A stretch of DNA of 64,000 bases. Origin: Caulobacteraceae bacterium (GTDB lineage: Bacteria > Pseudomonadota > Alphaproteobacteria > Caulobacterales > Caulobacteraceae). Positions 7,545 to 41,941 of this stretch are shown one piece after another. The stretch lies in contig JAQGIW010000170.1 of NCBI GenBank assembly GCA_028290905.1, positions 17,091 to 81,090 of the forward strand. The letters run 5' to 3'. A program made the position numbers and the translations under genes. Positions within the stretch are counted from its first letter, which is position 1; each line of letters starts with the position of its first letter. The notes under the pieces are model-generated. The model was not told where the DNA came from. It saw nothing but the letters and a program-made list of their open reading frames with translations, and ran no database searches.

Positions 7545-7569
7545 TTCCTCACTACCGATGTTCCAGGCG

Positions 7570-7806: not shown

Positions 7807-7811
7807 GTGCA

Positions 7812-7842: not shown

Positions 7843-7888
7843 GGAAGCTATGGCCGAAGCGGATTGTTTATGCTAGTCAGTGGATAAA
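7841..7888 (-). repeat. second intergenic motif family (TCCACTGACTAGCA... type), copy 1
   Basis: The reverse complement aligns with 11311-11359 and 16354-16403, with 14/14 over TCCACTGACTAGCA. Lies about 75 nt upstream of the TonB receptor start. Confidence 0.45.
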
Positions 7889-7957
7889 GCCAGTCAACTC
7901 CGCCGGAACCGCTCGTGTCGCACCGGCGTCGGCGAAAAGAGAATTAGGGAAGAAACC

Positions 7958-19864: not shown

Positions 19865-19917
19865 GCCCGTCCTCTGATGCATCGTCCGGCCAAAGGGTGA
19901 GGCCGGCTCATTCACTA

Positions 19918-19964
19918 TTATAAGGCGTTATACACATAAAATGCCAACCGCCTAGGCTGTCAAC
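19918..19964 (-). promoter_or_regulatory. promoter/operator cassette, full copy without hairpin, faces monooxygenase
   Basis: On the minus strand: TTGACA (19963-19958), 16 nt, TTTTAT, GTGTATAACGCCTTATAA. Confidence 0.5.
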
Positions 19965-20075: not shown

Positions 20076-20660
20076 ATGAACCTTGACCTTCGTCAACTCC
20101 AGCACGCCCTGGGCGACCTCGTCGGGATGTTGAACCGGCCACAACCGGGTCTGGCCCTGATGCGCGCAGCGGGCATCTCACTGGATCGGGCCCTTTTCCC
20201 GCTCCTGGGCCGGATCGAACACCGCGGGCCGATCGGCATCGTCGAGCTCGCGGACCTCTCCGGCCGCGACTACACGACCGTCAGCCGGCAAGTCGCAAAA
20301 CTGGAAAGCCTGGGTCTTGCTTCGCGACGCACTGGCGCCGTGGACCGTCGCGTTCGCGAGGTCGTGGTCACGCCGGCGGGACTCGCCATGACGGGCGCGG
20401 TCGATGTGGCGCGCGACAAAATGTTGACGGCCGTTCTCGCGACGTGGAGCCCCCAGGAAATTCGTGAATTGGCGCGGCTCTCTCGAAAATTGATCGACGC
20501 GATCGCCGCGGCAGAGCCCTACGATCAGCTTATGACGCAAGAACCTCACCCTTCATCTGGCGAGGCTGCCATACCTGCTGACTCTGGCACGCGGGCCGTC
20601 ACGAAGGCGAAGTCGTTGAATCCTACGTCACCAAGACACGCGGCAAGGTCGCGGCGCTGA
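20076..20660 (+). CDS. MarR-family transcriptional regulator (3' end runs into an IS remnant)
   Basis: Winged-helix core IVELADLSGRDYTTVSRQVAKLESLGLASRR...DRRVREVVVTPAG. The last ~26 codons overlap the IS6-like fragment in another frame. Confidence 0.8.
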   Translation: MNLDLRQLQHALGDLVGMLNRPQPGLALMRAAGISLDRALFPLLGRIEHRGPIGIVELADLSGRDYTTVSRQVAKLESLGLASRRTGAVDRRVREVVVTPAGLAMTGAVDVARDKMLTAVLATWSPQEIRELARLSRKLIDAIAAAEPYDQLMTQEPHPSSGEAAIPADSGTRAVTKAKSLNPTSPRHAARSRR

Positions 20661-25159: not shown

Positions 25160-26035
25160 TCAGCGCGCGTAACTCGGAATCGTGACTTCCCTGGGTTCCC
25201 CCGTAAGGGGCCAGCCCGTGGGCACTACGGCCCAAAACGCTGCGCGCTCGGCGGCATAGGTTTCGGGATCCACCATGGTCCGGTCGAGGAACGCCGCCAC
25301 GATGTCCATGCAGGGGTCGATGAGACTCTTGATTCTCCAAACCGCGTGCGAATAGGTCGAGATCACGTGCAGGTCCGAGACGGCGCCGACCGCGCACAGG
25401 GCCTTGTGCATCATGACGCTGGCGACGAAGGGGATCTGGACGTCCTCCGCGCCGTGGAAGATGCATGACGGCGGGAAGTCGTGGCGCACATAGGTCATCG
25501 GGCTGGCAGTGCGGACGTTCCACAGCGGCACCCGCTCCGTTCCAAACATTAACCATGCGGGCGAGTAGCCGAGCTCGAACTGGCCGCCTTGCATTCCGAT
25601 CACAGGTTCAAGCGGGATCACCGCGTTGAGCGGCACCCGACCTAGGTTGTCGGCAGCGGCGGCGCCGTCCGGATCGCCCGCGGCCAAGGCCGCCAGATGC
25701 GCGCCGGCGGAATAGCCCAACGCCGCGATACGATCGGGCTCGATCCCCAGCGCGTCCGCGTTGTCCCGGGTCCACTTGATTGCGGCGCGGGTGTCGCGGA
25801 TCTGGGCCGGCCACGGGTTGGCCGGCATCAGCCGGTAGTCGGCGACCACCGCGGTGAAACCACGCCTGGCCAGCGCCTCGGCGTGCGGCGCGAGATCCGC
25901 GCGTGAACCTACCCGCCATCCACCGCCGTGAAGCATGAGCACAGCGGCCCGCTTGCCGCCGTCATCGGGGTGATAGACGTCCAAAAGCTCTGGCGTCTCG
26001 TCGGGGGCGAAGGCGATACCGGTCTGCGTCTTCAA
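25160..26035 (-). CDS. alpha/beta-hydrolase (esterase/lipase)
   Basis: LMLHGGGW oxyanion motif and GYSAG nucleophile elbow. TTG start 6 nt after AGGAGGAAG. Confidence 0.8.
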   Translation of the reverse strand: MKTQTGIAFAPDETPELLDVYHPDDGGKRAAVLMLHGGGWRVGSRADLAPHAEALARRGFTAVVADYRLMPANPWPAQIRDTRAAIKWTRDNADALGIEPDRIAALGYSAGAHLAALAAGDPDGAAAADNLGRVPLNAVIPLEPVIGMQGGQFELGYSPAWLMFGTERVPLWNVRTASPMTYVRHDFPPSCIFHGAEDVQIPFVASVMMHKALCAVGAVSDLHVISTYSHAVWRIKSLIDPCMDIVAAFLDRTMVDPETYAAERAAFWAVVPTGWPLTGEPREVTIPSYAR

Positions 26036-26055
26036 AGGGGCTTCCTCCTAGCTAA

Positions 26056-26102
26056 TTATAATGCATTATACACATAATATCCTGGCGATTTCGGCTGTCA
26101 AT
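26056..26102 (-). promoter_or_regulatory. promoter/operator cassette, full copy, faces hydrolase operon
   Basis: On the minus strand: TTGACA (26101-26096), 16 nt, TATTAT, GTGTATAATGCATTATAA. Contains the perfect palindrome TATAATGCATTATA (26057-26070). Confidence 0.55.
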
Positions 26103-26115: not shown

Positions 26116-26187
26116 TTGACAGCACCGCCATTAATATGTGTATAATGTCATATAATGAACGACGGCAGTGGTTTGCCGTCGAAAAGG
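26116..26187 (+). promoter_or_regulatory. promoter/operator/5'-hairpin cassette, full copy, faces beta-propeller gene
   Basis: TTGACA 26116-26121, TAATAT 26132-26137 (spacer only 10 nt here), GTGTATAATGTCATATAA, perfect hairpin CGACGGCA/TGCCGTCG 26160-26181, then GAAAAG. Confidence 0.55.
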
Positions 26188-27591: not shown

Positions 27592-28674
27592 ATGAATGAA
27601 GCCACTAGACCGCGCGAGGCAATCCTCGAACCCGAGCTGACGATCGTCGATCCGCACCATCACCTGTGGGACCGCCCGGCGGCCTTGATGGCCGCGCTGC
27701 CGCCGCCGAAGCACGGCTTTGAGCGCGTCATCCGCCGCGTGCCCCGCTACCTGTTGGACGAGCTGCTGGCCGACATGAAGAGCGGCCACAACGTCAAGGC
27801 CACGGTCTATGTCGAGTGCCACTCGATGTACCGGTCGACCGGGCCGGCCGAGTTCAAACCGGTCGGGGAAACCGAGTTCGCCAATGGCGTCGCCGCCATG
27901 TCCGCCAGCGGGACTTACGGTGACGTAAGGGCTTGCGCGGGCATCGTCGGCACGGCCGACCTGAGGCTGGGGGCTTGGGCGGCGGAAGTCCTGCAGGCGC
28001 ACATGGCCGCCAGCTCGCGCTTCCGCGGCATCCGGCAGAGCGCGCCCCATGATCCGGATCCGGACGTTCTGGGCCCGCTCGCCCTCTTCGAGAGCGGGCT
28101 CTATCGCCGGGATGATTTCCGCGAAGGTTTCGCTCGCCTCGCCCCGCTGGGCCTGTCCTTCGACGCCTTGCTCGCGGAGCCCCAACTGCCGGACCTCATC
28201 GATCTCGCCCGCGCCTTTCCGGACACCGCCATTGTTCTGAACCACGTGGGCATGCCGCTGGGCCTCGCCAGCTACGCCGGAAAGCGGGAGGAACGCTTTC
28301 CGATCTGGCGCGACAACATCCGCGCGCTCGCCAAGGCGCCGAAGGTGTTCGTCAAGCTCGGCGGCCTAGCCAACGTGTTCTCCGGCTTCCCGTCCTTCAT
28401 GGCCGATCCGCCGGCGCCATCGAGCCAGCTCGCTGCCGAGTGGAAACCCTATTTCGAGACCTGCATCGACGCTTTCGGGCCCCAGCGCTGCATGTTCGAG
28501 AGCAACTTTCCGGTGGATATCGGCAGCTGCGACTACGACGTCCTGTGGAACGCCTTCAAGCGGATCGCCGCCCGCTATTCCGCCGACGAGAAGACCTCTC
28601 TGTTCAGCGATGCTGCATGCAACTTCTATCGTCTGAACCCGGAGGATATTACATGTGTAATGCCTTATAATTAA
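27592..28674 (+). CDS. amidohydrolase-2 (PF04909-type) metal-dependent hydrolase
   Basis: IVDPHHHLWD motif, 360 aa. The last eight codons are encoded by an operator-like motif. Confidence 0.85.
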   Translation: MNEATRPREAILEPELTIVDPHHHLWDRPAALMAALPPPKHGFERVIRRVPRYLLDELLADMKSGHNVKATVYVECHSMYRSTGPAEFKPVGETEFANGVAAMSASGTYGDVRACAGIVGTADLRLGAWAAEVLQAHMAASSRFRGIRQSAPHDPDPDVLGPLALFESGLYRRDDFREGFARLAPLGLSFDALLAEPQLPDLIDLARAFPDTAIVLNHVGMPLGLASYAGKREERFPIWRDNIRALAKAPKVFVKLGGLANVFSGFPSFMADPPAPSSQLAAEWKPYFETCIDAFGPQRCMFESNFPVDIGSCDYDVLWNAFKRIAARYSADEKTSLFSDAACNFYRLNPEDITCVMPYN

Positions 28675-28777
28675 GAGGCGCGCAAAAATGCGAATCCGGA
28701 ATCCACCAGTGGAATCGGCCGAGGACGTTCGGCGTTACGGCGTCGTTCCATCTGCGCTAGCTGACGGAGGCCTCTTA

Positions 28778-29620
28778 GTGTTGATCATCGACTCGCAAAT
28801 CCATCTTTGGAAAAGCGGCGAACCGCCGGCGCGTCACCGTCAGGCGCCCTATCTCGCGGAGGACGCCATTGCGGACATGGATGCGGCAGGGGTGGACGCC
28901 GCGATCAACGCCGCGGGGGTCCTATTGGATGTGGACTGCAGCTATGCGATCGAGTCAGCCGCCCGCTTTCCCGACCGTTTCGCGACTATCGGCTGGCTCA
29001 ACCTGAACCTCCCGGAGGCGCCCGACCTGGTGCGGCGCTGGCGCTCGCAGCCGGGCATGATCGGTTTCAGGTTCCATTGCGTCGCCGAGGACGAGCGAAG
29101 CTGGCCGACGGATGGGACAATGGACTGGTTCCTGCCGCTGGCCGCGGAGTTGGGTCTACCGGTCGGGTTGGGCGGCCCCGTACTGGCTCACGTCGAACGC
29201 TGGGCCGCTCAGTATCCGAACCTCAAGATTGTCTTGGACCACTTCGGTATTGTCGGTCAGAACCTCACAACCCGCGAATTGATACAGCACGAGGATGTGC
29301 TCTCGTGGAGCCGCTTCTCCAATGTGTCCGTCAAACTGTCGGCCGGAATATACTATGCCGGTGAGGATGAATACCCGTTCAGGAGCCTGCACGACAGGAT
29401 CCACCGGCTCTACGACGCTTATGGTCCCGAGCGGCTGTTCTGGGGAACCGATATCACCCGCGTGGACAATTGCACCTGGCGCCAGGCCGTCACCATGTTT
29501 ACCGAGGAGCTGTCGTGGCTGTCGCAGAACGACAAGACCCTGATCATGGGCGAGGCGCTCTGCCGCTGGTTCAACTGGTGGCCGTCGACCGCGGAGCCCG
29601 CGTCAGCTCCGCCCCAATAG
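28778..29620 (+). CDS. amidohydrolase-2 family protein (paralog B)
   Basis: VLIIDSQIHLW start equivalent to the MLIIDSQIHLW start of 30543-31424. GTG lies 8 nt after GGAGG. Confidence 0.8.
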   Translation: MLIIDSQIHLWKSGEPPARHRQAPYLAEDAIADMDAAGVDAAINAAGVLLDVDCSYAIESAARFPDRFATIGWLNLNLPEAPDLVRRWRSQPGMIGFRFHCVAEDERSWPTDGTMDWFLPLAAELGLPVGLGGPVLAHVERWAAQYPNLKIVLDHFGIVGQNLTTRELIQHEDVLSWSRFSNVSVKLSAGIYYAGEDEYPFRSLHDRIHRLYDAYGPERLFWGTDITRVDNCTWRQAVTMFTEELSWLSQNDKTLIMGEALCRWFNWWPSTAEPASAPPQ

Positions 29621-29651
29621 AGCGTTCTCAGCCTCAGGACGCCTTCGCGCG

Positions 29652-30533
29652 TCAGGCGTTCACGTGCCGTGCGATGAAGGCCTTGGCCATCTCGTGCGCC
29701 CGATCGGTCTGCGGACCGGGGGTCGCGACCCACTCGTGCAGGCAGTCCTCGAAGATGGTGTAGTCGCACGAACCTCCCGCGGCCCTGTAGCTCTCGACGA
29801 AGCGGGTCTGCAAGGCTGGACGGACGTTCTCGTCGAGGGCCCCCTGCATGATCAGGAGGGGCGTCAGAGTGATGGCTTCACGCCGATCCAGGATCTCCTG
29901 CGGGTTGGCCTCGTGGATCGTTTCCCAAGGAACGAAGTAGGTCTCGTGGAACTTGGCCAACGCGGCCTGCTGCATCGCCTGGGCGTTCTGGTAGCGTTCG
30001 AACGTATTGCTGATCGGCGAGCGGGCGATGACGTAGTCGACCGTCGCATCGACAGCCGGATTCTCCTGCAATGGCAGGGCGTTGTAGCGAGGGTCGCGAG
30101 GCCGCATCGCCAGAAGCTCAGCCAGGTGACCGCCGGTGGAGCTGCCGAAGACCCCGATCCGGGATGCATCACCGTTCCACGCCCCCGCCTTCGCCTTCAG
30201 CCACCGCACGGCGTAGTTGGCGTCCTGTACGCTCGCCGGATAAGGGGCCTCGCGCGCAAGTGTCAGGTCCACAGCCACGACGAGGGCGCCGGCCGAGGCG
30301 AGGGCCCGGTCGAAGGGCTCTTCGGCGTGACGGTCCTTGAAGTTCCATGCCCCGCCATGCAGGTCGAGCACCACACGGAAAGGCCCCGTCCCCAAGGGCT
30401 GGTAGATGCGCGCCATCAGCGGTCGCCCTTGCGCCGTGCGGCGGTATTCGACCTCGCTCACTTCGATCTCGAACTTGGCGCCTGGGTCGTAGGTCGCCTC
30501 CGATGCTGTGTTCCGTGCCGCGTCCGAACCCAT
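29652..30533 (-). CDS. alpha/beta-hydrolase (esterase)
   Basis: LDLHGGAW oxyanion motif and GSSTGG nucleophile elbow, 293 aa. Confidence 0.85.
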   Translation of the reverse strand: MGSDAARNTASEATYDPGAKFEIEVSEVEYRRTAQGRPLMARIYQPLGTGPFRVVLDLHGGAWNFKDRHAEEPFDRALASAGALVVAVDLTLAREAPYPASVQDANYAVRWLKAKAGAWNGDASRIGVFGSSTGGHLAELLAMRPRDPRYNALPLQENPAVDATVDYVIARSPISNTFERYQNAQAMQQAALAKFHETYFVPWETIHEANPQEILDRREAITLTPLLIMQGALDENVRPALQTRFVESYRAAGGSCDYTIFEDCLHEWVATPGPQTDRAHEMAKAFIARHVNA

Positions 30534-30542
30534 GCGATCCTC

Positions 30543-31424
30543 CTAGCGACTACAGTGTGGCGAGTCAGAAATTCGCCATTGCCTGTGGCGGGCGGCTGAC
30601 ACGGTCTCTGCGGTCGACGGCCACCAGTTGAACCAGCGGCAGAGCGCCTCGCCCATGATCAGGGTCTTGTCGGTCTCCGACAGCCACGGCATCTCCTCGG
30701 TAAACATGGTGACGGCCTGGCGCCAGGTGCAATTGTCCAGGCGGGTGATGTCGGTTCCCCAGAACAGCCGCTCGGGACCATAAGCATCGTAGAGGCGGTG
30801 GATCCTGTCGTGCATGCCCTTGAAAGGGTATCCATCCTCACGCGCATAGTCTGGCGCCCCGCACAGCTTGACGGAGACATTGGGGAAGCGGCTCCATGAG
30901 AGCACATCCTCGTGCTGTATCAATCCGCGGGTTGGCGTCAGACCCATGATGCCGAAGTGGTCCACGGCAATCTTGAGGTTCGGATATTGAGCCGCCCAGC
31001 GCTCGAGGTGAGGCAGCACGAACGGGCCGCCGAGCACGACCGGTATATCCAACTCCGCGGCCAGCCGCAGGAACCAGTCCATGGCGCCGTCTGTCGGCCA
31101 ACTCCGCTCGTCCTCGAGGCCGCAGGGGGTCCTGAAACCGATCATGCCCGGCTGCGAGCGCCAGCGCTGCACCAGGTCCGGCGCCTCCGGGCGGTCCAGC
31201 TTGATCCAGCCCGTCGTTGCGAAACGCTCGGGAAAGCGGGCGGCGGACTCGATCGCATAGCGATTGGAGTCCATATCCCACTGCGGCGGGGCGTTGATCG
31301 CGGCGTCCACGCCCGCCGCGTCCATGTCCGCGAGCGCTTGCTCCGCCAAATAGGGTTTCCGCCCGTGGTGCGGCGGCGCCTGGTCGCCCTCCCAAAGATG
31401 GATCTGCGAGTCGATGATCAACAT
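30543..31424 (-). CDS. amidohydrolase-2 family protein (paralog B')
   Basis: About three quarters identical to 28778-29620 by eye. Even the out-of-frame ORFs of the two copies are similar, so conservation is at the nucleotide level. Confidence 0.85.
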   Translation of the reverse strand: MLIIDSQIHLWEGDQAPPHHGRKPYLAEQALADMDAAGVDAAINAPPQWDMDSNRYAIESAARFPERFATTGWIKLDRPEAPDLVQRWRSQPGMIGFRTPCGLEDERSWPTDGAMDWFLRLAAELDIPVVLGGPFVLPHLERWAAQYPNLKIAVDHFGIMGLTPTRGLIQHEDVLSWSRFPNVSVKLCGAPDYAREDGYPFKGMHDRIHRLYDAYGPERLFWGTDITRLDNCTWRQAVTMFTEEMPWLSETDKTLIMGEALCRWFNWWPSTAETVSAARHRQWRISDSPHCSR

Positions 31425-31437
31425 GAGAGGTCTCCGT

Positions 31438-33759
31438 CTAACGCAGGTGGTACGTCACCGTAGCGCCGAACGTCCTCGGCGGATTCCACTGCATCAGGGT
31501 GTAGTACGAGCCGGTGTAGCCGAATAATCCACCCGCGAGAGCGCCATAACCCTCTGTCGGGGTCCCGAAGCGCGTGTCAGTCAAGTTTCGCCCCCAAAGC
31601 CGCAAACCCCAACGTCCGTTAGCCGTCTGGAAATTAACTGACGCATTCACCAGGCCGTTTATGCCCGTCCGGTCATGAACCGCCGGCACGTCGTAAAAGA
31701 AGGGGCCGCTGAAACTCGCATTCCCGTTAGCGCTACTGCTCCAGACCTTGCTCCGGAATGTTATGTCGCCGCCGGCCGAGAGCGTCCCCCAATCGTAGCG
31801 CCATTGTCCTTCCGCCGACAAATTGAGCGCGTTCTTCGGCGTGAATGGTAGATAGTTTCCCGCAAAACCGGCGGCGTCCGTAGTAAGATACTTGTCGTCG
31901 GAATAGGAGTAGGTGGCCCCCAGGTGCAGCCACGGCGCCGGCACGGCATGAATTTCCAAATCCAGCCCTTGTGACCGGGTGCGGCCGGCATTGGTGGCGA
32001 ACGTCGTCGCTATCGAAGTCCCCGGTAGTAGGCCGTTAATCACAACCTGCAAGTTTGTGATGTCTTCACGATAGAGGTCTATGTTTGCTGTGAGCCGGTT
32101 GTCGAACCAACTGGTCTTCGCTCCGATCTCATAGTTGGTGGCGCGCTCCGTCTTAAAGGGAACCTGAAGGCCCGCTATGTCCGCGGCGAACGTCGCTGCA
32201 CCGGGACCCGTGCCCTCAAAACCGCCGCCGACATAACCTTGCGAGTAGGTTGCATAGAACAGGGTGTCTCTTGTCGGCGTAAATTCGAGCGTTGCTTTTG
32301 GCGTGAAGGCGCTCCAACTCCCATTCTGCGGCGCCACTAACACCGCGCCATCTACGCCGCCCTGTAAGCCGCCTTCTTCGACTACGCTTCCTGACTTGTG
32401 GTCGTAAGTGTATCGACCACCGAGGACGAGCTTTAGCCAATCCGTAAACTTGTAACCGATCTCGGCAAACCCCGACGCACTCTTAGCGTCAATCGTCGCT
32501 ATGTCATATTGTGGGCCTGAACCCAAGAAAGACAGCCCAAGGGACGGCGGGCTGTCAGGAAGGATTGTCGTTCTTTCCTCGTGAGACGTCGAAAGGTAGA
32601 CGCCTGCGAGCCACGTGAACTTTTGGTCATCGGGTGAGACCAGGCGCAACTCTTCCGTCACCTCCCAGTCATTCGCTATAAACAAGGAATCGAAGAAATT
32701 TACGGGATCGCCCAGCTCGCTTTTCTCCGAGGTGGACTTGTTGAGCCTGTATCCCGTGATCGAGGCGAGCGTCGCGAAATCCAGGTCCAAAGCCGCATGC
32801 ACAAAAGCATTGAAGTCTTTGTGGGAACTCCTGAAATTGACGTTTTGCAAAGTCCTGTCGGGATCGTTGGGGACGCCAAACGTCGGGTAGTTGAGCGCCG
32901 GGTAGAAAGGCGATGTGCTCGCCACGAAAGAGCCGTCGCCCAGGTACGTCATCGGCGGCGAATCGGAGTCGTCCTGGAGATAGTCGGCGCCGGCCAGCAC
33001 CTTGAATTTGTCGGTCACGTTCGCCAGCACCTGTCCGCGGACGCCGAAGGTCCTTTGGGCGCCGATAGTCCCGCCCAAGGTAGGATCGTACACGTAGCCG
33101 TCCTGACGGTGGTAGTAGCCGGTGAGTTTCGCCGCAACTCGATCACTGAGCGGACCGGTCACGAGGCCCTGGAACTCACCAAGACCGTAGCTTCCGCCGG
33201 TTGCCTCGAGTTCAAGGTCACGCGTGAAGCTCGGCGCCTTAGTGTGAATTGAAATGACGCCGCCAATGGTGTTCTTGCCGAATGCGGTGCCCTGAGGCCC
33301 TCTGAGGACTTCCACGCGATCGATATCAAACAGTTTCTCGTCACGATCCACGTGGCCGAACGTGGCCAGCTCATCGATGTAGACGCTCGACGGCTCGTCT
33401 ACACCTGGAGAATCGTCGATTCCCGTATAGGTGCCGCGCATGTTGATGCCGCTGAAGTCGGCCGGGCCAGGTATTGCGACGAGACCAGCTACGGCGTTTT
33501 GGAGATCGGTGTAAGTCTGCAGTCTTTGTTCCTTGATTGTCGCACCGCTGACGGCCGAAATGGAGGCCGCGACTTTCTGGATAGACTGGGCGCGCTTGTT
33601 CGCGGTGACCGTGATCATCTCAACGGTGGTCGGGGCCCGAGACTCCGTCACTGAATTGGCCGCTAGATCCGCTGCCCGAGCGCTGCTGGCGGCTAATACG
33701 ACAATAGGCGCCACGCTGATCAGCCCGAGAGCGCAACCGAGTGTTCTGTGTGCGGCCAT
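31438..33759 (-). CDS. TonB-dependent receptor
   Basis: Signal peptide MAAHRTLGCALGLISVAPIVVLAASSARA, plug motifs (VEVLRGPQGTAFGKNTIGGVISIHTK) and a C-terminal ...TYHLR. ATG 33759 follows GGGGAAACAGGGA. Confidence 0.9.
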   Translation of the reverse strand: MAAHRTLGCALGLISVAPIVVLAASSARAADLAANSVTESRAPTTVEMITVTANKRAQSIQKVAASISAVSGATIKEQRLQTYTDLQNAVAGLVAIPGPADFSGINMRGTYTGIDDSPGVDEPSSVYIDELATFGHVDRDEKLFDIDRVEVLRGPQGTAFGKNTIGGVISIHTKAPSFTRDLELEATGGSYGLGEFQGLVTGPLSDRVAAKLTGYYHRQDGYVYDPTLGGTIGAQRTFGVRGQVLANVTDKFKVLAGADYLQDDSDSPPMTYLGDGSFVASTSPFYPALNYPTFGVPNDPDRTLQNVNFRSSHKDFNAFVHAALDLDFATLASITGYRLNKSTSEKSELGDPVNFFDSLFIANDWEVTEELRLVSPDDQKFTWLAGVYLSTSHEERTTILPDSPPSLGLSFLGSGPQYDIATIDAKSASGFAEIGYKFTDWLKLVLGGRYTYDHKSGSVVEEGGLQGGVDGAVLVAPQNGSWSAFTPKATLEFTPTRDTLFYATYSQGYVGGGFEGTGPGAATFAADIAGLQVPFKTERATNYEIGAKTSWFDNRLTANIDLYREDITNLQVVINGLLPGTSIATTFATNAGRTRSQGLDLEIHAVPAPWLHLGATYSYSDDKYLTTDAAGFAGNYLPFTPKNALNLSAEGQWRYDWGTLSAGGDITFRSKVWSSSANGNASFSGPFFYDVPAVHDRTGINGLVNASVNFQTANGRWGLRLWGRNLTDTRFGTPTEGYGALAGGLFGYTGSYYTLMQWNPPRTFGATVTYHLR

Positions 33760-33962
33760 TCCCTGTTTCCCCAAATCTTCTTTCTTGTTTCTCATGTGTT
33801 TCCGCCAAGGACGTGCAGTTCAGTCCATCGCGTCCCCAAGGGATGGCCGCGCGAATGGCGGCAGGCGCGTGCTGGGGCGCGGTCTGCGCGCTCGGCGTTC
33901 AGTGATCGACGCGCACCGGCCACCCGTCGCATGACGCGGAATCCTCTTCGTTCGCTCCCTGG

Positions 33963-34032
33963 TTTTCGACGGCCAATACCGTCGTTTATATTGCGTTATA
34001 CACATATTAATCCGTGTAATTGTCCTGTCAAT
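33963..34032 (-). promoter_or_regulatory. promoter/operator/5'-hairpin cassette, full copy, faces TonB receptor
   Basis: On the minus strand: TTGACA (34031-34026), 16 nt, TAATAT, GTGTATAACGCAATATAA, hairpin CGACGGT/GCCGTCG (33985-33968), then GAAAAC. Confidence 0.55.
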
Positions 34033-34073
34033 ATGATTGTTCCGCCGCCGTGGTACCCTTGAGCTTCCTGCCT

Positions 34074-34637
34074 TCAGCCGCCTTCCCGGCTCGAGCGCAG
34101 GGCGGGGATCATGCGGGCGAGGACGCGGTCCTTGACCACGAAGTGGTGGTAGACGCCGGACAGGGCGTGACCAGTCGCGAGGATAATGATGACCCATCCG
34201 ACCAGGCTGTGGATCACGCCGATGGAGTCGTTGGTTGCGCGCGAGACGTGCGGGACCCCCACCGGCGGAATGGGCAGGCCGAAGAAGATCATCGCCTCGC
34301 CCCCCGACCAGCGCAGCACGAAGCCGAGCACGAACTCGAAGAGGATGAAGGCGTAGAGCAGGTAGTGCACGGCCTTGGAGGCGCCCGAATGGGCCGGCGG
34401 CAGCCGGTGGCCGGGGATGAGGCGCCAGACGATGCGTGCGATCACGGCTAGGCCCAGCAGGATGCCGAACCCCATGTGCAGCATGATCATTTCGCGGCGC
34501 ATCGGCGCGGCGAAGAGGCCCCAGGTCTTGGAGAAGCCGAACTGGATCAGCACCAGGGCGACGGTGATCCAGTGCAGGGTCACGGAGACGCCGTCGTAGG
34601 TGGCGGGGCCGACGGCGGATTTGTGGGCGGCGCTCAT
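34074..34637 (-). CDS. cytochrome b561 family protein
   Basis: 187 aa, four hydrophobic helices with conserved His residues (TLHWI..., MLHMGFG, ...HSLVGW). Confidence 0.8.
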   Translation of the reverse strand: MSAAHKSAVGPATYDGVSVTLHWITVALVLIQFGFSKTWGLFAAPMRREMIMLHMGFGILLGLAVIARIVWRLIPGHRLPPAHSGASKAVHYLLYAFILFEFVLGFVLRWSGGEAMIFFGLPIPPVGVPHVSRATNDSIGVIHSLVGWVIIILATGHALSGVYHHFVVKDRVLARMIPALRSSREGG

Positions 34638-34644
34638 GGCGGCT

Positions 34645-34758
34645 CTATCGGTTGCGATTGCGTCTGACCGCGATCTGGCGCCGGCTGGCCAAGGAGGCCG
34701 CCGGCGCCACGCTGATCAGCAGCGCGAACGCGCGACCGAGTGTTCTGTGTGCGGCCAT
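34645..34758 (-). pseudogene. 37-codon stub: TonB-receptor signal-peptide start fused to unrelated sequence
   Basis: MAAHRTLGRAFALLISVAP... copies the first ~19 codons of 31438-33759. It then diverges and stops 8 nt before the cytochrome b561 start. Confidence 0.6.
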
Positions 34759-34887
34759 TCGGTGTTTCCCCTAACCCTCCGGTTTTATGTATTTCTGCCC
34801 GAGGACCGCTCCGAAAGCGCCTTGAGCCCGGCCCTTGGGCTATCGACGCGCACTGGCCACGCTGCGTGATGCGGAACCCCATTTGTT

Positions 34888-34959
34888 TTCAACGGCAGAC
34901 CAATGCCGTCGCTCATTTATACGGCATAATACACGTAATAGTGTATTTGTCCTGTCAAT
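34888..34959 (-). promoter_or_regulatory. promoter/operator/5'-hairpin cassette, degenerate copy (12-nt spacer)
   Basis: On the minus strand: TTGACA (34958-34953), 12 nt, TATTAC, GTGTATTATGCCGTATAA, hairpin CGACGGCA/TGCCGTTG (34911-34890), then GAAAAC. Confidence 0.5.
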
Positions 34960-35234
34960 ATCTTTGTGGCGCCGCCGCGGGCTTGGGGCTGGGAGCCCTT
35001 GAAAGCCCCGCAGCATCAGCGAAGGACGGTGGGCTGTGACTTCCTGTGGGTGTGGGACACTTTGGGCTCAATGCGGCCTACCGGAGGTCGTGTCCCGGGC
35101 GGTGGTGTAGCTCGGGGCGAGTAGCGGAGCCGCTCGCGAGGCGTGACCGCTGTGACGTCGGTAGTGCCAGTCGACCTGTGGGGTTTCGGCGGTGCATCCG
35201 AGGAACGGATACCATTCGCCGGGCTTCGCCGCTT

Positions 35235-36083
35235 TCAGTAGCTCGGTTTCTGCACCGAGGGCGTCAGCTGGAGCTCGTGGGTCCAGCAGGAGGGGTGTTG
35301 GCTGTGGAGGTAGTGGAAGGCGTCGGCGATCCGGGCCGGATCGATCAGCGATTCCGGCTTGATCCGGGGGAGCGCCCGGGTGCCGGGGGAGTCGATCGTG
35401 CCGTCGATGACGACGTTGGCGACGTGGACGCCGTGCTCTGAATATTCTTCGGTGAGCGCCTGGGCGAGGGCGCGCATCATCACCCGCGGATAGTAGAGGG
35501 ACCCGCCGGTGTAGCGCTTGCGGCCCCGGAGGGACTGAGCGTTGTTGGAGAACAGGAGCGAGCCGCGCCTGGCGCGGCGCATGGCCGGCAGCACCTCCTT
35601 GGCGACCAGGAAGGGGCCGCGGCAGGCGACGTTCAGCGCGGTCTCGAACATCTCGGTTGGAAAGAACTCCAGCAACTCATGCTCGGGCGGCAGCGCCCGG
35701 CCCTCCAGGTAGCCGGCGTTGTAGACGACGACCGCCGGGTCGCCGGCCTCGCGCCGGATCTCGTCGAAGGCTGCGGTGATCGAGGCCTGGGAGGCGAGGT
35801 CCAGCTCGACGATCATGGCCTCGCCGCCCTGGTCGGCGATGGCCTGGGCCAGGCCCTCTGCGTGGGCGGCGCCGCGCGTGGTCAGGACGACGAAGAAGCC
35901 CTCGCGCGCGAACTTCTGGGCGATCGCGCCGCCGACGCCCCAGCGGGCGCTCAGGGGCGTGGACGTCTCGTCGAGCGGGGCGCCGTGGGCCAGCAGGGTG
36001 TTTGGCCCGTCGGGCTGCCATTTCGAGGTTGCCCCGATGACGACGGCGACGTCCTTGCCGCGGCTGTTGCGCATCTGGTCCAT
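35235..36083 (-). CDS. short-chain dehydrogenase/reductase (SDR)
   Basis: VAVVIGATSKW ... NAGY. ATG 36083 follows AGAGGAG. The ORF part upstream of this ATG has no coding look. Confidence 0.8.
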   Translation of the reverse strand: MDQMRNSRGKDVAVVIGATSKWQPDGPNTLLAHGAPLDETSTPLSARWGVGGAIAQKFAREGFFVVLTTRGAAHAEGLAQAIADQGGEAMIVELDLASQASITAAFDEIRREAGDPAVVVYNAGYLEGRALPPEHELLEFFPTEMFETALNVACRGPFLVAKEVLPAMRRARRGSLLFSNNAQSLRGRKRYTGGSLYYPRVMMRALAQALTEEYSEHGVHVANVVIDGTIDSPGTRALPRIKPESLIDPARIADAFHYLHSQHPSCWTHELQLTPSVQKPSY

Positions 36084-36096
36084 CGTGACGGCTCCT

Positions 36097-36261
36097 CTAT
36101 CGCCCGGGGCCAGCGGGGCGGCCGCCCAGGGCGACGGCGCCGACCAGGGGCTCGGGCAGGCCGAAGCTGGCCGTCTCGGAGGCCCGGATGATGTCGCAGG
36201 CGAGCGCGATCTCGAAGCCGCCGCCGAGCGCCAGGCCATTGACCGCGGCGTGTGCGGCCAT
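36097..36261 (-). pseudogene. chimeric stub: TonB-receptor start codons (MAAH) fused to an internal enoyl-CoA hydratase fragment
   Basis: Translates to [41 protein letters not shown]..., the crotonase oxyanion-hole region. 54 codons, with the stop 13 nt before the SDR start. Confidence 0.65.
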
Positions 36262-36361
36262 TCTGTGTTTCCCCTAACCTTCCGTTCTTATGTGTTTCTG
36301 ACCAAGCTCCGTTCCAAAGGCTCCTTGAGCCCGCCCCTTGGACGATCGACGCGCAGTGGAC

Positions 36362-36410
36362 GTTTATGATACATAATACACATATTAATCTGTGTATTTG
36401 TCCTGTCAAT
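36362..36410 (-). promoter_or_regulatory. promoter/operator cassette, full copy without hairpin
   Basis: On the minus strand: TTGACA (36409-36404), 16 nt, TAATAT, GTGTATTATGTATCATAA. Confidence 0.5.
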
Positions 36411-36463
36411 ATCGTTGTTGCGCCGCCGCCTTAGGGCGGGGAGCCTTTGAAGAGCCTCGGGCA

Positions 36464-36853
36464 GTGACTCAGACGGAAGAGAAGCTGTACATACATTTGC
36501 CAGTCGCTCTCTCGACGAGAGCGACTGAGGCTGTCACGGCGCTGCTTGACCCTCGACAACGTGTATTGCAATATGCAACTATATGGGACCATCCCTCCGC
36601 GCGCCGCAACCGCATCCGCGACAACGTCTGGGACGTGATCAACCACGAGATCGAGGACCTCGGCCTCACCCCCGACTGGAGCCGCTGGACCGAGGACGGC
36701 TTCCCGCCCGATACGCGAAACCCGCGCCATGACTGGGCCTCCATGTGGCGCCCCGACCCCGAGCGCGCCGAGGCGCGCCGCCTGGCGAGGGCAGAGGCTC
36801 TCGCCGATCAACCGCCCGGCTCTCGCCCGCCCGATCCACACCGCCGGGAATAG
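36464..36853 (+). CDS. hypothetical protein (start uncertain)
   Basis: The 3' two thirds show strong GC3 codon bias (RNRIRDNVWDVINHEIEDLGLTPDW...). The 5' part is lower in GC and contains a perfect hairpin, so the real start may lie further downstream. Confidence 0.35.
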   Translation: MTQTEEKLYIHLPVALSTRATEAVTALLDPRQRVLQYATIWDHPSARRNRIRDNVWDVINHEIEDLGLTPDWSRWTEDGFPPDTRNPRHDWASMWRPDPERAEARRLARAEALADQPPGSRPPDPHRRE

Positions 36854-36935
36854 ACGGTGGGCCGGCGCCTCGCACCCTTAACAGTCGCGCGCGAGTCAGA
36901 CACAAGGGGTGGCGAGATCCTCAACCGGAGCCCGC

Positions 36936-37898
36936 ATGCCCCTGCCTCTCGCCGGCCGTCCCCTTTCTGGTCGGCACGTCGCCGTCCTTATGGGGGGGCT
37001 GTCGGCCGAGCGTGAGGTGAGTCTGGTGTCGGGCGCCGCCTGCGCCGACGCTCTGGAACGCCTCGGCGCCAAGGTCAGCCGCGTTGACGCCGGGCGCGAC
37101 CTGGCGGCTGTCCTGACGGCCCTGCGGCCCGATGTCTGCTTCAACGCCCTGCACGGCGCGTGGGGTGAGGACGGCTGCGTCCAGGGGGTGCTGGAGACCC
37201 TGGCGCTGGCCTACACCCACTCCGGCGTCCTGGCCTCGGCCTTGGCCATGGACAAGGCCAAGGCCAAGGCCGTGCTGGCGGCCGCCGGGGTCCAGGTGCC
37301 GGGCGGTGGCCTCTTCAGCCGCTTCGACGCCGGGCGGCGGCACGTCCTCCCCCCGCCCTATGTCGTCAAGCCCAACGCCGAGGGCTCTTCGGTCGGTGTG
37401 TTTCGGGTGTTCGAGGGCGCGAACGCCCCGCCCGAGGCGCTTCTCTCGGCCGAATGGGTGTTCGGCGACGAGGTCATGGTCGAACCCTATGTCCCCGGCC
37501 TCGAGCTGTCCGTGGCGGTGATGGGCGGCCGGGCCCTGATGGTCACCGAGATCGAGGCGGCCACGGGCTTCTACGACTACGACGCGAAGTACGGCGAGGG
37601 CGGGTCGCGGCACATCATGCCGGCGCGCATTTCCGCCGCGGCGACCGAACGGGCCAAGGGCCAGGCGGCCGCGGCTCACGCGGCTCTGGGATGTCGCGGA
37701 CTGACGCGCAGCGACCTGCGTTATGATGACGTTAACGACATCCTGGTCTTGTTGGAGGTCAATACCCAACCCGGGATGACGCCGACCTCGCTCGCACCGG
37801 AGCAGGCGGCTCACGTCGGTTTCGATTTTGACAAACTGGTCTTATGGATCACGGAGGACGGCTATGGTCGCCGCGACGCTGAGAGATCGGCGGGGTGA
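36936..37898 (+). CDS. ddl: D-alanine--D-alanine ligase
   Basis: [20 protein letters not shown]-terminus, an ATP-grasp core, and position directly upstream of ftsQ. Confidence 0.9.
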
Positions 37899-38877
37899 CG
37901 CGAAGTCGCGGGCGAAGGGCCCCGCCGACCGCGCGCGCCCGCGCGTCTCGCGCCCGGCCGCGCCGGCGCCCTCGAAGCTGAAGGCCGCCCAAGGCGTCCG
38001 CCTCGGCGCGCACGCGGCCATGGCTGTTGCGGCGATGCTGGCGGCGCTGATCCTCGCTGCGACGCTGGCGACCGATGGTCGCGGCGCTCAGGTCGTCGAC
38101 GGGGCGCAGCGCCTGGCGGCGGAATCCGCCCGCCTCGCGGGAATGGGCCAGGGCCTCGTCGCCGAACGCTTCGCGGGTCTGGGCCTGCGCCTGGCCGAGG
38201 TGCACCTGCAGGGCGCCTCGCCGGCCTCCCAGAAGCAGATCCTGCGGGTGGCGGCGGTCACGCCGGGCGTTCCCATTCTCGGCCTCGACTTGAACGCCAT
38301 CCGGACAAGGGTCGAGCAGGTCGCGTGGGTCGATCACGCCCGGGTCATCCGGCTGTTGCCCGACACCCTCGTGATCGCGGTCCAGGAGCGGCCGCTGCTG
38401 GCTATCTGGCAGCACCAGGGCCGCCTGGATGTCGTCGCCGCCGACGGGCGGGTGGATCCCACCGTCGATCCCAGGCGCTTTCCGAGCCTGCCCCGCATCA
38501 TCGGGCCCGGCGCGAACACCGAGGCGGCGACACTCCTCCCTGCGCTGTCGAAGCGCCCACGCCTGATGGCGCGCCTGCAGGCGGTGAGGCGAGTGGACCA
38601 GCGGCGCTGGGACCTGCTGCTGAAGGGTGGCGGGACTATTCTCCTGCCGGCCGCCGACGAGCCCGCCGCCCTCGACCGCCTGGACCGCCTCGATCGCGCC
38701 TCGCGCATCCTCGACCTGGGGCTGGCGCGAATCGATCTGCGCAACCCGAGGTTCGTGGTGGCCCGGCCGGTGGCCGTGGCGGCGAGCGCGCCGACCCGGA
38801 CAGCGATCGGGGCTTCCGCGGCGGCGGTTGGTTCGGCGGTGGCCGGTTCGCCGGGGGCAGGCGGGTCGCGTGACTGA
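37864..38877 (+). CDS. ftsQ: cell division protein FtsQ
   Basis: Basic N-terminus, one TM helix ([18 protein letters not shown]), POTRA-like [20 protein letters not shown]... and position between ddl and ftsA. ATG follows GGAGGA and overlaps the end of ddl. Confidence 0.85.
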
Positions 38878-38907
38878 AATGTTTGAATCAGAACAAGTTG
38901 TGATGGG

Positions 38908-40260
38908 GTGCAACGAATGCAGGCTGTGATGGAACGGGGCGCGACCCTGGGTGCGGGGCGACGCGAGGGGCGGGACGGGCTGAAGCTGACGCTCGGTCGT
39001 TCGCCGGTGTTCGCCGCGGTGGATCTGGGCGCCTCGAAGGTGGCCTGCTTCATCCTGAAATCGGACGGGATCCGCCGTGCGGATCGCACGCTGACCACCG
39101 CGGGCGTGGGCTATGTGCAATCGCGTGGGGTGCGGGGCGGCGCCATCGTCGACGTGGGCGAGGCCTCCCTCGCCATCGGCCAGGCGGTGGAACGCGCCGA
39201 AGCCATGGCCGGCCTCGACATCAACGGGGTGACCATCGTCACCGCCTGCGGCCAACTCGCCAGCCATCGGGTGACCGCCAAGGTGGCGGTGGGAGGGCGG
39301 CCGATTACCGACGCCGACCAGGCCCGGGCGGTCGCCCAGGCGATGGCCACCCTGCGGCTGAACCGCCGCAAGGCGATCCACATGCGCCCGATCACCTGGT
39401 CCGTTGACGGCCTGGGCCATGTCCAGGACCCCAGGGGGATGTCCGGCAGGGCCCTCGGGCTGGAGATGTTGGTTGTGTCGATGAAGGAGGGCGTGCACCA
39501 GACCATCGCCCATTGCGTCGAGCGAGCCCACCTGCAGCTCGAAGGCGTGGTGGCGTCCCCCTACGCCTCGGCCCTGGCCGCGCTGGAGCAGGACGAGATG
39601 GAGCTGGGATCCATCTGTATCGACATGGGAGGCGGATCGACGTCGGTGGCGGTGTTCGCCGGCGGCGCGCTGATCCATGTGGACAGCCTTCCGGTGGGCG
39701 GCGCCCACGTCACCAAGGACGTCGCCCAGGGCCTCTCCACGTCTCTGGGCGGCGCCGAACGGATCAAGACCCTCCACGGCTCGGCCATCGCCTCGGCCAA
39801 CGAGGATCGCGAGATGATCGAAGCCCCGCCCCGGGGCGACGACCCGGGCGCGGGTCCGGTCACCGCTCCGCGGTCGATGCTCAAGGGCATCATCGCGCCG
39901 CGCGTCGAGGAGACGTTCGAGATCCTGAAGGAGCGCCTGAAAACGGCCGAGGCTTTGGAGCTCGGCGCCGGGATCGTCCTGATCGGCGGCGCCAGTCAGC
40001 TGGCCGGCGTCCGCGAGGTCGCCACCCGCGTCTTCGATCGCAACGTTCGCCTGGGCCGCCCCGCGCGCATCCCCCACCTGGCCGACGCCGCCGCCGGACC
40101 GGGGTTCTGCGCCGCCGCGGGCGTGCTGCAACGGGCCGCTTTCGGTCCCCGCGACCTGGGGAAGCCTCTCACGGGGGCCGCCTCGCGCTCGAGCCGACCA
40201 GTGGATCCCAACGCCAACATGGTGGTCAAGGCGGCGTCGTGGTTGCGGGATAATCTTTAA
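38908..40260 (+). CDS. ftsA: cell division protein FtsA
   Basis: Actin-like ATPase motifs (AAVDLGASKV, IDMGGGSTS, GIVLIGGASQL). Alternative starts are at 38917, 38926 and 38929. Confidence 0.9.
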   Translation: MQRMQAVMERGATLGAGRREGRDGLKLTLGRSPVFAAVDLGASKVACFILKSDGIRRADRTLTTAGVGYVQSRGVRGGAIVDVGEASLAIGQAVERAEAMAGLDINGVTIVTACGQLASHRVTAKVAVGGRPITDADQARAVAQAMATLRLNRRKAIHMRPITWSVDGLGHVQDPRGMSGRALGLEMLVVSMKEGVHQTIAHCVERAHLQLEGVVASPYASALAALEQDEMELGSICIDMGGGSTSVAVFAGGALIHVDSLPVGGAHVTKDVAQGLSTSLGGAERIKTLHGSAIASANEDREMIEAPPRGDDPGAGPVTAPRSMLKGIIAPRVEETFEILKERLKTAEALELGAGIVLIGGASQLAGVREVATRVFDRNVRLGRPARIPHLADAAAGPGFCAAAGVLQRAAFGPRDLGKPLTGAASRSSRPVDPNANMVVKAASWLRDNL

Positions 40261-40345
40261 GGGGTTCCAACCTATGCAGCAGAAAAATTTTCCGCCTCAG
40301 GACGATCGAGCCCACCTCGACACCTCGCCGACTCAGCTTATGCAG

Positions 40346-40360
40346 TTAACGCAAGATTAA
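40346..40360 (+). promoter_or_regulatory. CtrA-type box TTAA-N7-TTAA upstream of ftsZ
   Basis: TTAACGCAAGATTAA lies 94 nt upstream of the ftsZ ATG. GANTC sites occur at 40330-40334 and 40421-40425. Confidence 0.5.
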
Positions 40361-40453
40361 GGGTCGTGGATGCTCAATCAGCGCTCATCAAGCGATGCGA
40401 CCTGAGGGCGGGCAGGGTCTGAGTCACCACGTAACGGAGGCCGCGGCGGTACA

Positions 40454-41941
40454 ATGACATTCAAGGTTTTTGCTCCCCAGACCAAGGAACTGAAGCCCCG
40501 CATCGTGGTGTTCGGTGTCGGCGGGGCCGGCGGCAACGCTGTAAACAACATGATCGAGGCCGGTCTCGAGGGCGTCGAGTTCGTGGTCGCCAACACCGAT
40601 TCACAGCAACTCGCGTTCTCAAAGACTGAAAGGCGGATTCAGCTCGGGGTCAACGTCACCCAGGGCCTGGGCGCGGGCGCCCACCCGGAGGTCGGCATGT
40701 CGGCGGCGGAGGAATCGGCCGCCGAGATCGGGGAATACCTCGACGGCGCCCACATGGTCTTCATCACCGCCGGCATGGGCGGCGGGACGGGCACCGGGGC
40801 GGGCCCGATCATCGCCAAGTGCGCGCGCGAACGGGGGATCCTGACCGTAGGAGTCGTCACCAAGCCTTTCCACTTCGAAGGCCGCCACCGCATGCGGCTG
40901 GCCGATTCGGGCATCGCCGAGCTGCAGCGCTACGTCGACACCCTGATCGTCATCCCCAACCAGAACCTCTTCCGCGTCGCCAACGAACGGACGACCTTCT
41001 CACAGGCCTTCGCCATGGCCGATCAGGTGCTGCACTCGGGCGTCCGCTCGATCACCGACCTGATGGTCCTGCCGGGCCTGATCAACCTCGACTTCGCCGA
41101 CGTCCGCACGGTCATGACCGAGATGGGCAAGGCGATGATGGGAACCGGCGAGGCCAGCGGCGAGGGCCGCGCCCTGATGGCCGCCGAGAACGCCATCCAG
41201 AATCCATTGCTCGACGAGGTGACCCTGAAGGGCGCCAAGGCGGTGCTGGTGAACATCACCGGCGGCCTCGACATGACCCTCCTGGAGGTCGACGAAGCCG
41301 CCAACGCCATTTCCGGTCAGGTGGACCCGGAAGCCAACATCATCTTCGGGGCGGCCTTCGACGCCTCCCTCGACGGCCTCGTTCGGGTGTCGGTGGTGGC
41401 GACCGGCATGGATGGGGCGTCGATCGCCGCCATCGAACCCTACGAAGAACCTCGCGCCCGGCCCGCGAAAGCGGCAGCCTCGGCGATGGACGAGACCGAG
41501 CCTGTCGCATCGCTCGCGCCCGCTCCGGTCAGGGAACTCGAGCCTGCGCTCACCGCGGTGGCGAGCCTGGCCGCGACGTCGGAGCCCGCCGCCGCAGATG
41601 CGGAGCCTGTCTCGGCCGGCGAGGTGGGGCTGTTGTTCGACGCGCCGACCGCGTCCAGGCCCGTCCAACCCGGCGGCGCCTCGACGGGCAGGCGGATCGT
41701 CGATCCGGCGGCGGCCGAGGGGGAGGACGAACCGCTGTTCGGGCCGGCCATGTTCCCTGATGACCGCCGGCAGAAGCCGGGCTTTCTCAGCCTGTTCGGG
41801 CGCGGTCGGCAACCTTCTCGGGCGTCAGCGCCCCGCGCCGGATCGGGGGCCCAGCCGGCGCTCGAACCCCTGGACGATCACGATATCGAGGGGGCCGAGG
41901 AACTGGAGATCCCATCGTTCCTTCGCCGCCTGGCCAACTGA
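40454..41941 (+). CDS. ftsZ: cell division protein FtsZ
   Basis: [13 protein letters not shown] and GGGTGTGA tubulin signature, a long Pro/Ala-rich linker, and the C-terminal peptide [11 protein letters not shown]. Confidence 0.95.

Follow-up and report, generated by a model that had tools for sequence, protein, structure and literature searches.

The stretch of DNA considered here, 64,000 nt of contig JAQGIW010000170.1 from a Caulobacteraceae bacterium (the window, below), has on its minus strand three copies of a unit composed of a promoter cassette, a leader, a ribosome binding site (RBS) and the start of a coding sequence, ATGGCCGCACAC, at ~33703-34073, 34703-35022 and 36250-36460. The original prediction saw in them the upstream region of a TonB-dependent receptor gene, triplicated and placed by recombination in front of two unrelated genes, those for a cytochrome b561 and a short-chain dehydrogenase (SDR). 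These would thereby have come under the receptor's control, possibly with translational coupling from the short chimeric open reading frames (ORFs), here called stubs, with which the second and third copies end.

Three units and the genes behind them

Two motifs mark the units. One, ATATTGACAGGACAA[A/T]TACAC, is present at 34014-34034, 34941-34961 and 36392-36412, and the other, GGGGAAACAnnGAATGGCCGCACAC, at 33748-33772, 34747-34771 and 36250-36274, in each case on the minus strand. Neither has a further site in the window even when 3 mismatches are allowed, and shuffles give an expectation of 0. The three related units are true paralogs, as had been proposed. By gapless repeat finding and MAFFT alignment, 110 nt of leader in copies 2 and 3 (34747-34856 versus 36250-36359) show 85% identity, as do 60 nt of copies 1 and 2 that include the RBS and first codons (33721-33780 versus 34720-34779). 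On account of these two stretches the similarity is not confined to the ~50-bp cassette but extends past it, through the RBS and into the first codons, the RBS and ATGGCCGCACAC being identical in all three; overall divergence among the copies is 15-30%. While the full unit does occur three times, the cassette alone is not restricted to these copies, since four weaker members are present elsewhere in the window.

Copy 1 begins ~10 nt past the b561 stop codon. Its 5' flank and promoter cassette (33985..34073), of what is termed below the T-type, have TTGACA, a 16-nt spacer and TAATAT, with a dyad, TTACAC-N10-GTGTAT, at 33998-34019. The leader that follows (33760..33984) has a hairpin (33967-33984), the conserved block GGGAGCGAACGAAGAGGATTCCGCGTCA (33932-33959), a variable middle and the RBS GGGGAAACA. 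Copy 1 alone continues into a receptor, as the original prediction stated: the gene at 31438..33759, whose 773-aa product has Plug and barrel domains, is the native gene of the unit and is followed by an Amidohydrolase_2 gene (30543-31424) and an esterase gene (29652-30533).

Copy 2 (34759..35022, minus strand) is of the other, b-type, with flank, cassette (34916-34962), hairpin (34890-34911), leader blocks and RBS. It runs into stub 2 (34645..34758), a 37-codon ORF that reads MAAHRTLGRAFALLISVAPAASLASRRQIAVRRNRNR*. The length given for it earlier was right and so was its ending just before b561; the distance from its TAG to the b561 ATG is 7 nt rather than 8. Its first ~19-25 codons are homologous to the signal-peptide region of the receptor and the remainder crosses what was the ancestral b561 leader (34635-34669). 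The b561 gene itself (34074..34637, minus strand; 187 aa) was recognized by domain search and from its homologs. The exact window b561 protein gave no record in an exact-protein look-up, and its N-terminus (MSAAHKSAVGPATYDG, 34590-34637) is without ~10 codons (..TRIAAGDEG..) that are present in the related contigs L019, L020, L028, L031 and L032.

Copy 3 (36262..36460, minus strand), also of the b-type, has a flank, an intact cassette (36363-36413; TTGACA, 16-nt spacer, TAATAT), a shortened leader and the RBS, and its best dyad is ATACACAGATTAATATGTGTAT at 36376-36397. Alignment bears out that it has lost the hairpin, and the block after the hairpin is missing too. Stub 3 (36097..36261, minus strand; 54 codons) is, as described before, four codons, MAAH, joined to a fragment of an enoyl-CoA hydratase (ECH) gene, here with a 10-residue tail, and it ends at the native ECH stop. 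The fragment matches Pfam ECH_1 (E=2e-12) at profile positions 93-132 of 251, and its residues match ~120-159 of a full-length homolog. The stop is 13 nt before the ATG of the SDR gene (35235..36083, minus strand), which is intact, encodes 282 aa and is 94% identical to homologs in L025 and L026; a native AGGAG and the 13-nt spacing are retained in front of it. Both stubs are thus chimeric junction ORFs, one made of receptor codons and b561 leader, the other of MAAH and ECH_1 sequence.

Gene order in relatives and the ancestry of the copies

The relatives are contigs of uncultured Caulobacteraceae from a receptor homolog search, with L027 and L029 coming from a metagenome cassette scan. In L019, L020/L021 and L022, whose receptors are 91%, 82% and 68% identical to that of the window, the order is marR (divergent), b561, receptor, amidohydrolase, esterase, and the same order is found in L027 and L029. 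In every relative b561 is preceded by a cassette of its own. With its place between marR and the receptor conserved in this way, and with its own cassette, b561 is not an unrelated gene that was brought under a receptor promoter. The cassettes are also of two types. That before the receptor (T-type) has AATTACAC ... GTGTATAAYG, and orthologs of copy 1 of this type are present in L019, L020, L022, L026-L029, L031 and L032. That before b561 (b-type) has AAATACAC ... GTGTATTATG, fixed in L020, L022, L028, L029, L031 and L032. Copies 2 and 3 carry the diagnostic b-type bases, not those of the T-type.

Copy 2 and its upstream flank (window 34866-35066) align at 79% with the spacer between marR and b561 in L027, which places copy 2 where that spacer was in the ancestor; 35023..35066 is a relic of the marR-side half of the old intergenic region and, together with copy 2, is homologous to L027 125-321. 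From 35022 to 29639 the window is collinear with L032 at 92.9% identity, copy 2 being orthologous to L032 313-581. The L032 unit has flank, b-type cassette with an intact 16-nt spacer, hairpin, leader, RBS, a 42-codon stub (MAAHRTLGRAFGLLISAAPAASLAS...) and then b561, a 1-nt indel near the stub's end having shifted the frame so that its TGA overlaps the b561 ATG (ATGA). Copy 2 and its stub are accordingly an old arrangement and not a recent capture, and the 15-30% divergence of the copies together with this orthology argues against a recent duplication. The last 35 nt of stub 2, including the TAG, correspond to the ancestral b561 leader as in L019.

How much lies between cassette and b561 varies greatly. 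L027 has retained the hairpin together with half of the block after it, L029 the hairpin alone and L019 the b561 leader alone, and in L020 and L022 ~15 nt separate cassette and b561 ATG, leaving almost no leader. L028 and L031, which are 94.5% identical to the window and adjoin ddl as it does, have a single b-type unit without the hairpin region, in which ATGGCCGCACA(C/T) is in-frame with b561 (MAAH-VVATRIAAG...). L028, L031 and L032 all retain the first 11 nt, ATGGCCGCACA, base 12 being T in L031 and the RBS having diverged in L032.

For the SDR the history is a different one. Its homologs are widespread in varied contexts (a P450 gene upstream in L025; unrelated neighbours in L030 and the P0125 contig), and no cassette was seen upstream of those in L025 or L030. 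In L026 a receptor unit stands back to back with the last ~25 ECH codons (..GEDVKEGPRTFAEKRAARWPGR*), which are followed by AGGAG and SDR, so that ECH stop, AGGAG and the 13-nt spacing are all seen there. The ECH piece in the window is truncated at its 5' end, has lost an internal segment and changes frame in its tail, and it keeps the native stop and spacing; by its sequence the gene is dead. Since the window and L026 keep different ECH pieces, an ECH-SDR pair would once have stood beside the cluster with ECH decaying independently in the two lineages. A native ECH-SDR operon was not found among more distant SDR homologs, L026 alone having an ECH 3' remnant. Copy 3 is a b-type unit, including ~80-95 nt of marR-side flank, joined at codon 4 to this remnant, and among the three copies its promoter and dyad are the best. 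Promoter capture, as originally proposed for both genes, is accordingly the best reading for the SDR, whose L025 and L030 homologs are without cassette and in front of which a b-type unit is fused at an ECH codon junction, and not for b561 with its cassette in every relative. Capture by the SDR is the best-supported part of the earlier idea; its consequence for expression is a plausible prediction.

Copy 3 shares with the L028 and L031 units its place beside the ORF next to ddl and a loss of the hairpin with the same 5' boundary. For these reasons orthology of the three is favoured, in which case L028/L031 would later have lost everything from codon 4 to b561 codon 9; alternatively, the SDR segment may have been inserted in the window lineage rather than deleted in L028/L031. 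Substitutions shared among copy 2, copy 3 and the units L028b, L031b and L032b were tried as a guide to the order of events and set aside as uninformative, the pattern being star-like with 11 private changes in copy 2 and 5 in copy 3. The leaders of copies 2 and 3 are similar in length to that of L023 and share some bases with it. Derivation of the two copies from a receptor paralog of the L023 type was considered and not adopted, the stub codons being 91% identical to L020 versus 86% to L023 (hand count).

Several observations concern the surroundings of these genes. Beyond copy 3 the catabolic cluster abuts ddl (assigned by Pfam), followed by ftsQ, ftsA and ftsZ (window 36909-41941, plus strand), the latter three recognized from 87% identity to L031 genes with those Pfam domains. 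The ddl junction is common to L028 and L031, with marR there instead in L019, L020, L022, L027 and L029, and because these other relatives have marR at that edge, the b561-receptor block must have been relocated in the sublineage of the window, L028 and L031. Between ddl and copy 3 is an ORF (36430-36860, plus strand), without a Pfam match, that resembles a 5'-truncated form of a 255-aa L031 ORF (4997-5764) and is shorter still in L028; an AT-rich near-palindrome, TTGCATATTGCAA, is present at its start region (~36565-36595). In L032 homology to the window stops at 35022, and positions 1-312 have, instead of marR, a short coiled-coil-like ORF on the opposite strand to which Pfam offers no meaningful match. 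Here the same edge of the b-type unit has been broken independently for a third time. L029, and only L029, has an extra gene between b561 and the receptor unit (7490-8080), of roughly 200 aa and presumably nitroreductase-like from its sequence. The gene upstream of the SDR in L025 (4103-5400) reads as a cytochrome P450 (heme motif FGAGPHFCIGSALAR), with a short ORF and then a 620-nt gap that probably reflects a frameshift in a long-read assembly. A scar of the same kind as the stubs is present at window 28640-28800 (plus strand), where a cassette of which the right half remains (..ATGCCTTATAATTAAGA..) and a short leader pass directly into the last ~55 nt of a TonB-dependent receptor gene, including its TAG, and then into the start of a second amidohydrolase gene (ORF 28688-29620). 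Nearly the whole of a receptor paralog has been deleted here, and L023 4050-4183 has the same arrangement.

The cassette as a candidate regulon promoter

Against the promoter consensus copies 1 and 3 score 10/12, and copy 2 reaches 9/12 via a shifted -35 only. The copy 2 cassette has a private 4-bp deletion that reduces its -35/-10 spacer from 16 to 12 nt and its dyad spacing from 10 to 6 nt. Because of it, equal control of receptor, b561 and SDR, as the original prediction had it, is doubtful. In copies 1 and 3, and in most cassettes of either type, the -10 element lies in the middle of a 22-bp near-palindrome, ATACACAnATTAATnTGTGTAT. A second promoter at the downstream TATAAT/TATAAA box was considered, and, with no acceptable -35 at 16-18 nt by inspection, the TTGACA, 16-nt spacer and TAWTAT arrangement is preferred.

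A profile built from 16 cassettes was searched against the window and the relatives. In the window it found four further cassettes. One, at 6219-6265 (plus strand) and accompanied by a hairpin, is upstream of a gene starting at ~6381 whose product has, as read from its sequence, a glyoxalase/VOC-like N-terminus (MIRIRKIEHVGL...). Two are back to back, that at 26055-26101 (minus strand) facing an esterase gene (25160-26035) and that at 26116-26156 (plus strand), with a hairpin, facing a beta-propeller gene. The fourth, at 19917-19963 (minus strand), is partial (TTGACAG...ATGTGTATAACGCCTTATAAT) and occupies the spacer between a marR gene and the divergent gene for a flavin adenine dinucleotide (FAD) aromatic-ring hydroxylase (18353-19915). 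In L019, L029 and L023 the profile found cassettes before glyoxalase, esterase, YncE-like and amidohydrolase genes. Common to the sites are TTGACAG, an unvarying spacing, TAWTAT-GTGTATAAYGC-N3-TATAAW and, in many cases, a hairpin (CGACGGCA..TGCCGTCG-GAAAA). Because members stand before other genes of the cluster, in the window as in relatives, the ~50-bp cassette is probably a regulon-wide promoter with a probable operator and not a private triplication. The cassette core so marks at least 4 further putative promoters, spread over 4-36 kb of the window, that would belong to a single aromatic-catabolism regulon. Weaker cassette matches are present at 7812-7845 (minus strand) and 4251-4263 (plus strand).

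What might act at the cassette? The window ORF at 20019-20660 matches Pfam MarR, MarR_2 and HVO_A0114, and the marR gene (20076-20660, plus strand) is divergent from the cassette promoter of the hydroxylase gene just mentioned. In L019-L022 the marR gene that diverges from the b561 cassette has ~76% identity to it, and divergence of marR from a b-type cassette is seen in L019, L020/L021, L022, L027 and L029 (six contigs). The best PDB sequence match of the window protein (E=8e-6) is an uncharacterised MarR. The MarR protein is thus a candidate repressor of the cassette promoters, at which the 22-bp dyad, the GTGTATAAYGC box or the hairpin may be the operator. No terminator-like site was found on the minus strand from 33000 to 37500, and with no terminator between the units, read-through from copy 3 into b561 and the receptor is possible.

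Scars, couplers and what the units may be for

The reading we prefer, with a probability of about 70%, is that the three copies are paralogs of one expression module belonging to a repressor-controlled cluster for the uptake and breakdown of aromatic compounds. The module would consist of a sigma-70-like promoter (TTGACA, 16-nt spacer, TAATAT), the 22-bp dyad over it, an invariant GTGTATAAYGC...TATAAW box as probable MarR-family operator, the 5' hairpin, the long leader and a strong RBS with the start ATG GCC GCA CAC. Copy 1 would be the native upstream region of the receptor. Copy 2 would be the ancestral marR-b561 spacer, in which an ancestor of the clade joined the b-type cassette to the receptor leader and ~20-25 receptor codons, probably by tandem duplication of the segment between the b561 leader and about receptor codon 20-25 and then loss of the extra b561 by recombination between cassettes, with stub 2 as the scar of the junction. 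Copy 3 would be a further b-type unit, less its hairpin region, fused at codon 4 into the middle of the ECH gene that once preceded the SDR, leaving the SDR behind a regulon promoter. Transcription from copy 3 may continue through b561 and the receptor, possibly offsetting the damaged copy 2 promoter, and ribosomes that end on the stubs 7 or 13 nt before the next start may be of some help to b561 translation. The stubs themselves read as scars of old duplications and deletions, products of ordinary genome evolution that the relatives happen to document unusually well.

Some of the findings weigh against this. The window marR is 14 kb from the three copies, with none beside b561, and promoter, operator and the link to MarR are deduced from sequence together with gene neighbourhood. 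The other regulon promoters have only GTGTATAAYGC..TATAAW in common and are without the left arm of the dyad, so that the true operator may be that box or the hairpin. The 4-bp deletion may have disabled the copy 2 promoter, and no site groups copy 3 either with copy 2 or with the L028/L031 units. Further, over its first 75 nt stub 2 has 97% identity to its L032 counterpart (hand count; 96.4% for a 56-nt segment), to be compared with 80% for the copy 2 leader, 88% for the copy 1 leader, and 89% and 93% for the third codon positions of b561 and receptor. This excess conservation has P ~0.006-0.1 by our calculation, depending on the neutral rate assumed, and hints that the stub is more than a neutral scar.

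Are the stubs, then, couplers? That a recent recombination put the receptor's promoter and leader before unrelated b561 and SDR genes, giving shared control with functional couplers, can call on units that are real paralogs past the start codon, on stops so near the next ATG, on b561 being translated directly from the unit RBS and ATG in L028 and L031, and on L032, where the 1-nt indel shifts the frame and yet the stub still ends at the b561 start. We nevertheless judge it unlikely. b561 is the ancestral partner of the receptor, the copy 2 and 3 cassettes are its own type, the copies are old, and copy 2 has lost its promoter spacing. Nor do the stops speak for selection: the three frames that enter the b561 leader either meet TAG or TGA within 7 nt of the ATG or run in-frame into b561, and because all three do so the stop positions carry no selection signal. 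Both stops are moreover inherited, that of stub 2 from the ancestral b561 leader and that of stub 3 from the ECH gene, and so are no evidence of evolved coupling. For the SDR coupling is not needed, because its AGGAG is well placed, at the right distance; b561 has upstream only a weak GATAGAG. Functional translational coupling from the stubs is possible, though on balance unlikely.

The conservation of stub 2 could instead mean that stub and start region are kept by selection, as a small signal-peptide-like membrane peptide or as a portable RBS and MAAH head for b561. The identity of RBS and ATGGCCGCACAC in three copies, the retention of ATGGCCGCACA in the three relatives named above and the tying of b561 to a MAAH start in four lineages, via fusion or an adjacent stop, all fit. 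However, both of the window-L032 stub differences (2/2) are non-synonymous with 0 synonymous, 2 differences in 75 nt are not significant at the receptor third-position rate of 93% (~P=0.1), and L019, L020, L022, L027 and L029 have no stub, all of which makes such selection distinctly unlikely. In its broader form, that promoter, operator, RBS and MAAH are a selected portable expression head repeatedly grafted onto genes, with the stub under purifying selection, the idea is an improbable one. On it, b561 would depend for its translation on the head in three forms, fused (L028, L031), by termination-reinitiation (window, L032) and near-leaderless (L020, L022), a natural series of one gene moving between fused, coupled and leaderless translation.

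Conservation in the leader raises a further alternative, that of a regulatory RNA structure acting in cis, either riboswitch-like or the target of a small RNA or protein, and duplicated so as to give b561 and the SDR the receptor's signal. The hairpin and the blocks GGGAGCGAACGAAGAGGATTCCGCATCA, GTCGATCGCCCAAGGGCGGGCTCAAGGAGCC and CCTTGGCGGAAACAC are conserved before receptor orthologs and also before paralogs that are 57-59% identical in protein, and the hairpins, in which G-U pairs are tolerated, have a different sequence at some promoters. Against this, there is no Rfam match at E up to 1 over 29000-40000, and RNAalifold of 10 receptor leaders gave just 13 pairs at -4.0 kcal/mol, with compensatory changes in 2 pairs only, the consensus fold amounting to the hairpin plus some weak pairing. 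Length differs by >100 nt in the middle part of the leader (L022 is without ~100 nt), copy 3 and the L028/L031 units do without the hairpin and the most conserved block, and b561 in L020 and L022 has almost no leader at all. A regulatory RNA is on these grounds decidedly improbable. The block GGGAGCGAACGAAGAGGATTCCGCATCA (window 33932-33959, with equivalents in L019-L032) has neither a supported RNA structure nor a conserved small ORF. An upstream ORF in the leader was considered and dropped, the ATG in ..CATCATGCGGCG.. not being conserved (CACG in copy 2, L026 and L028; CACC in L023). Scarcely credible is a small mobile element with an outward-facing promoter, akin to miniature inverted-repeat transposable elements or repetitive extragenic palindromic sequences, inserted at three places. 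While there are multiple copies within one region, and the flank upstream of copy 2 differs among genomes (an unrelated ORF in L032), the copies have no terminal inverted repeats or target duplications around them, every copy faces a gene of the same cluster and positions are conserved across relatives. In a scan of 185,579 species genomes, a collection that does not include the source species, the cassette gave just 18 single chance matches in unrelated taxa.

If the copies are indeed paralogs of one regulon module, the module doubles as a recombination substrate, its portable homology serving duplications, deletions and fusions in a fast-rearranging catabolic cluster, and the locus would be a clear natural example of the rewiring of a catabolic regulon. 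It would also illustrate how leftover short ORFs are open to being mistaken for genes or regulatory peptides. That b561 is found across related contigs as an in-frame fusion, behind a stub ORF or almost leaderless makes any role of coupling directly testable, and a candidate MarR regulon motif is now defined for uncultured Caulobacteraceae that break down aromatic compounds.

In translational coupling, ribosomes terminate and reinitiate where a stop and a start codon adjoin or overlap, as in the ATGA overlaps of bacterial operons. The stub stops at 7 and 13 nt from the next ATG, and the true ATGA overlap with b561 in L032, are like this; unlike it, the stub stops are inherited from older sequence and the SDR has a Shine-Dalgarno sequence of its own.

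For copy 3 and the SDR the closest counterpart is the rnk-citT promoter capture by duplication in the Escherichia coli long-term evolution experiment, described by Blount et al. 2012 as cited in PMC4718724. There as here a duplicated promoter segment joined inside a gene leaves a chimeric 5' stub with the downstream gene (here SDR) behind a new promoter. The copy 3-SDR case differs in being natural and old, the copies having diverged by 15-25%, in having as donor a putative regulon promoter complete with leader and RBS, and in the further decay of the disrupted gene, ECH.

For the regulon as a whole the nearest precedents are MarR-type repressors that deal with lignin-derived aromatics, PhcR and DesR (PMC12447483) and the PcaV regulon (PMC3616709), and in particular DdvR of Sphingobium sp. 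SYK-6, which controls the TonB-dependent receptor gene ddvT together with ligXa (PMC6874591). In the window, unlike in DdvR-type regulons, the gene of the putative regulator is separated by 14 kb from the b561-receptor pair. Points of likeness are a MarR gene beside a cluster that includes a TonB-dependent receptor, amidohydrolase-family enzymes, esterases, dioxygenase-like proteins and ring hydroxylases, one motif over -35 and -10 shared by several promoters of the cluster, and a regulator gene that is here, too, divergent from a putative target promoter.

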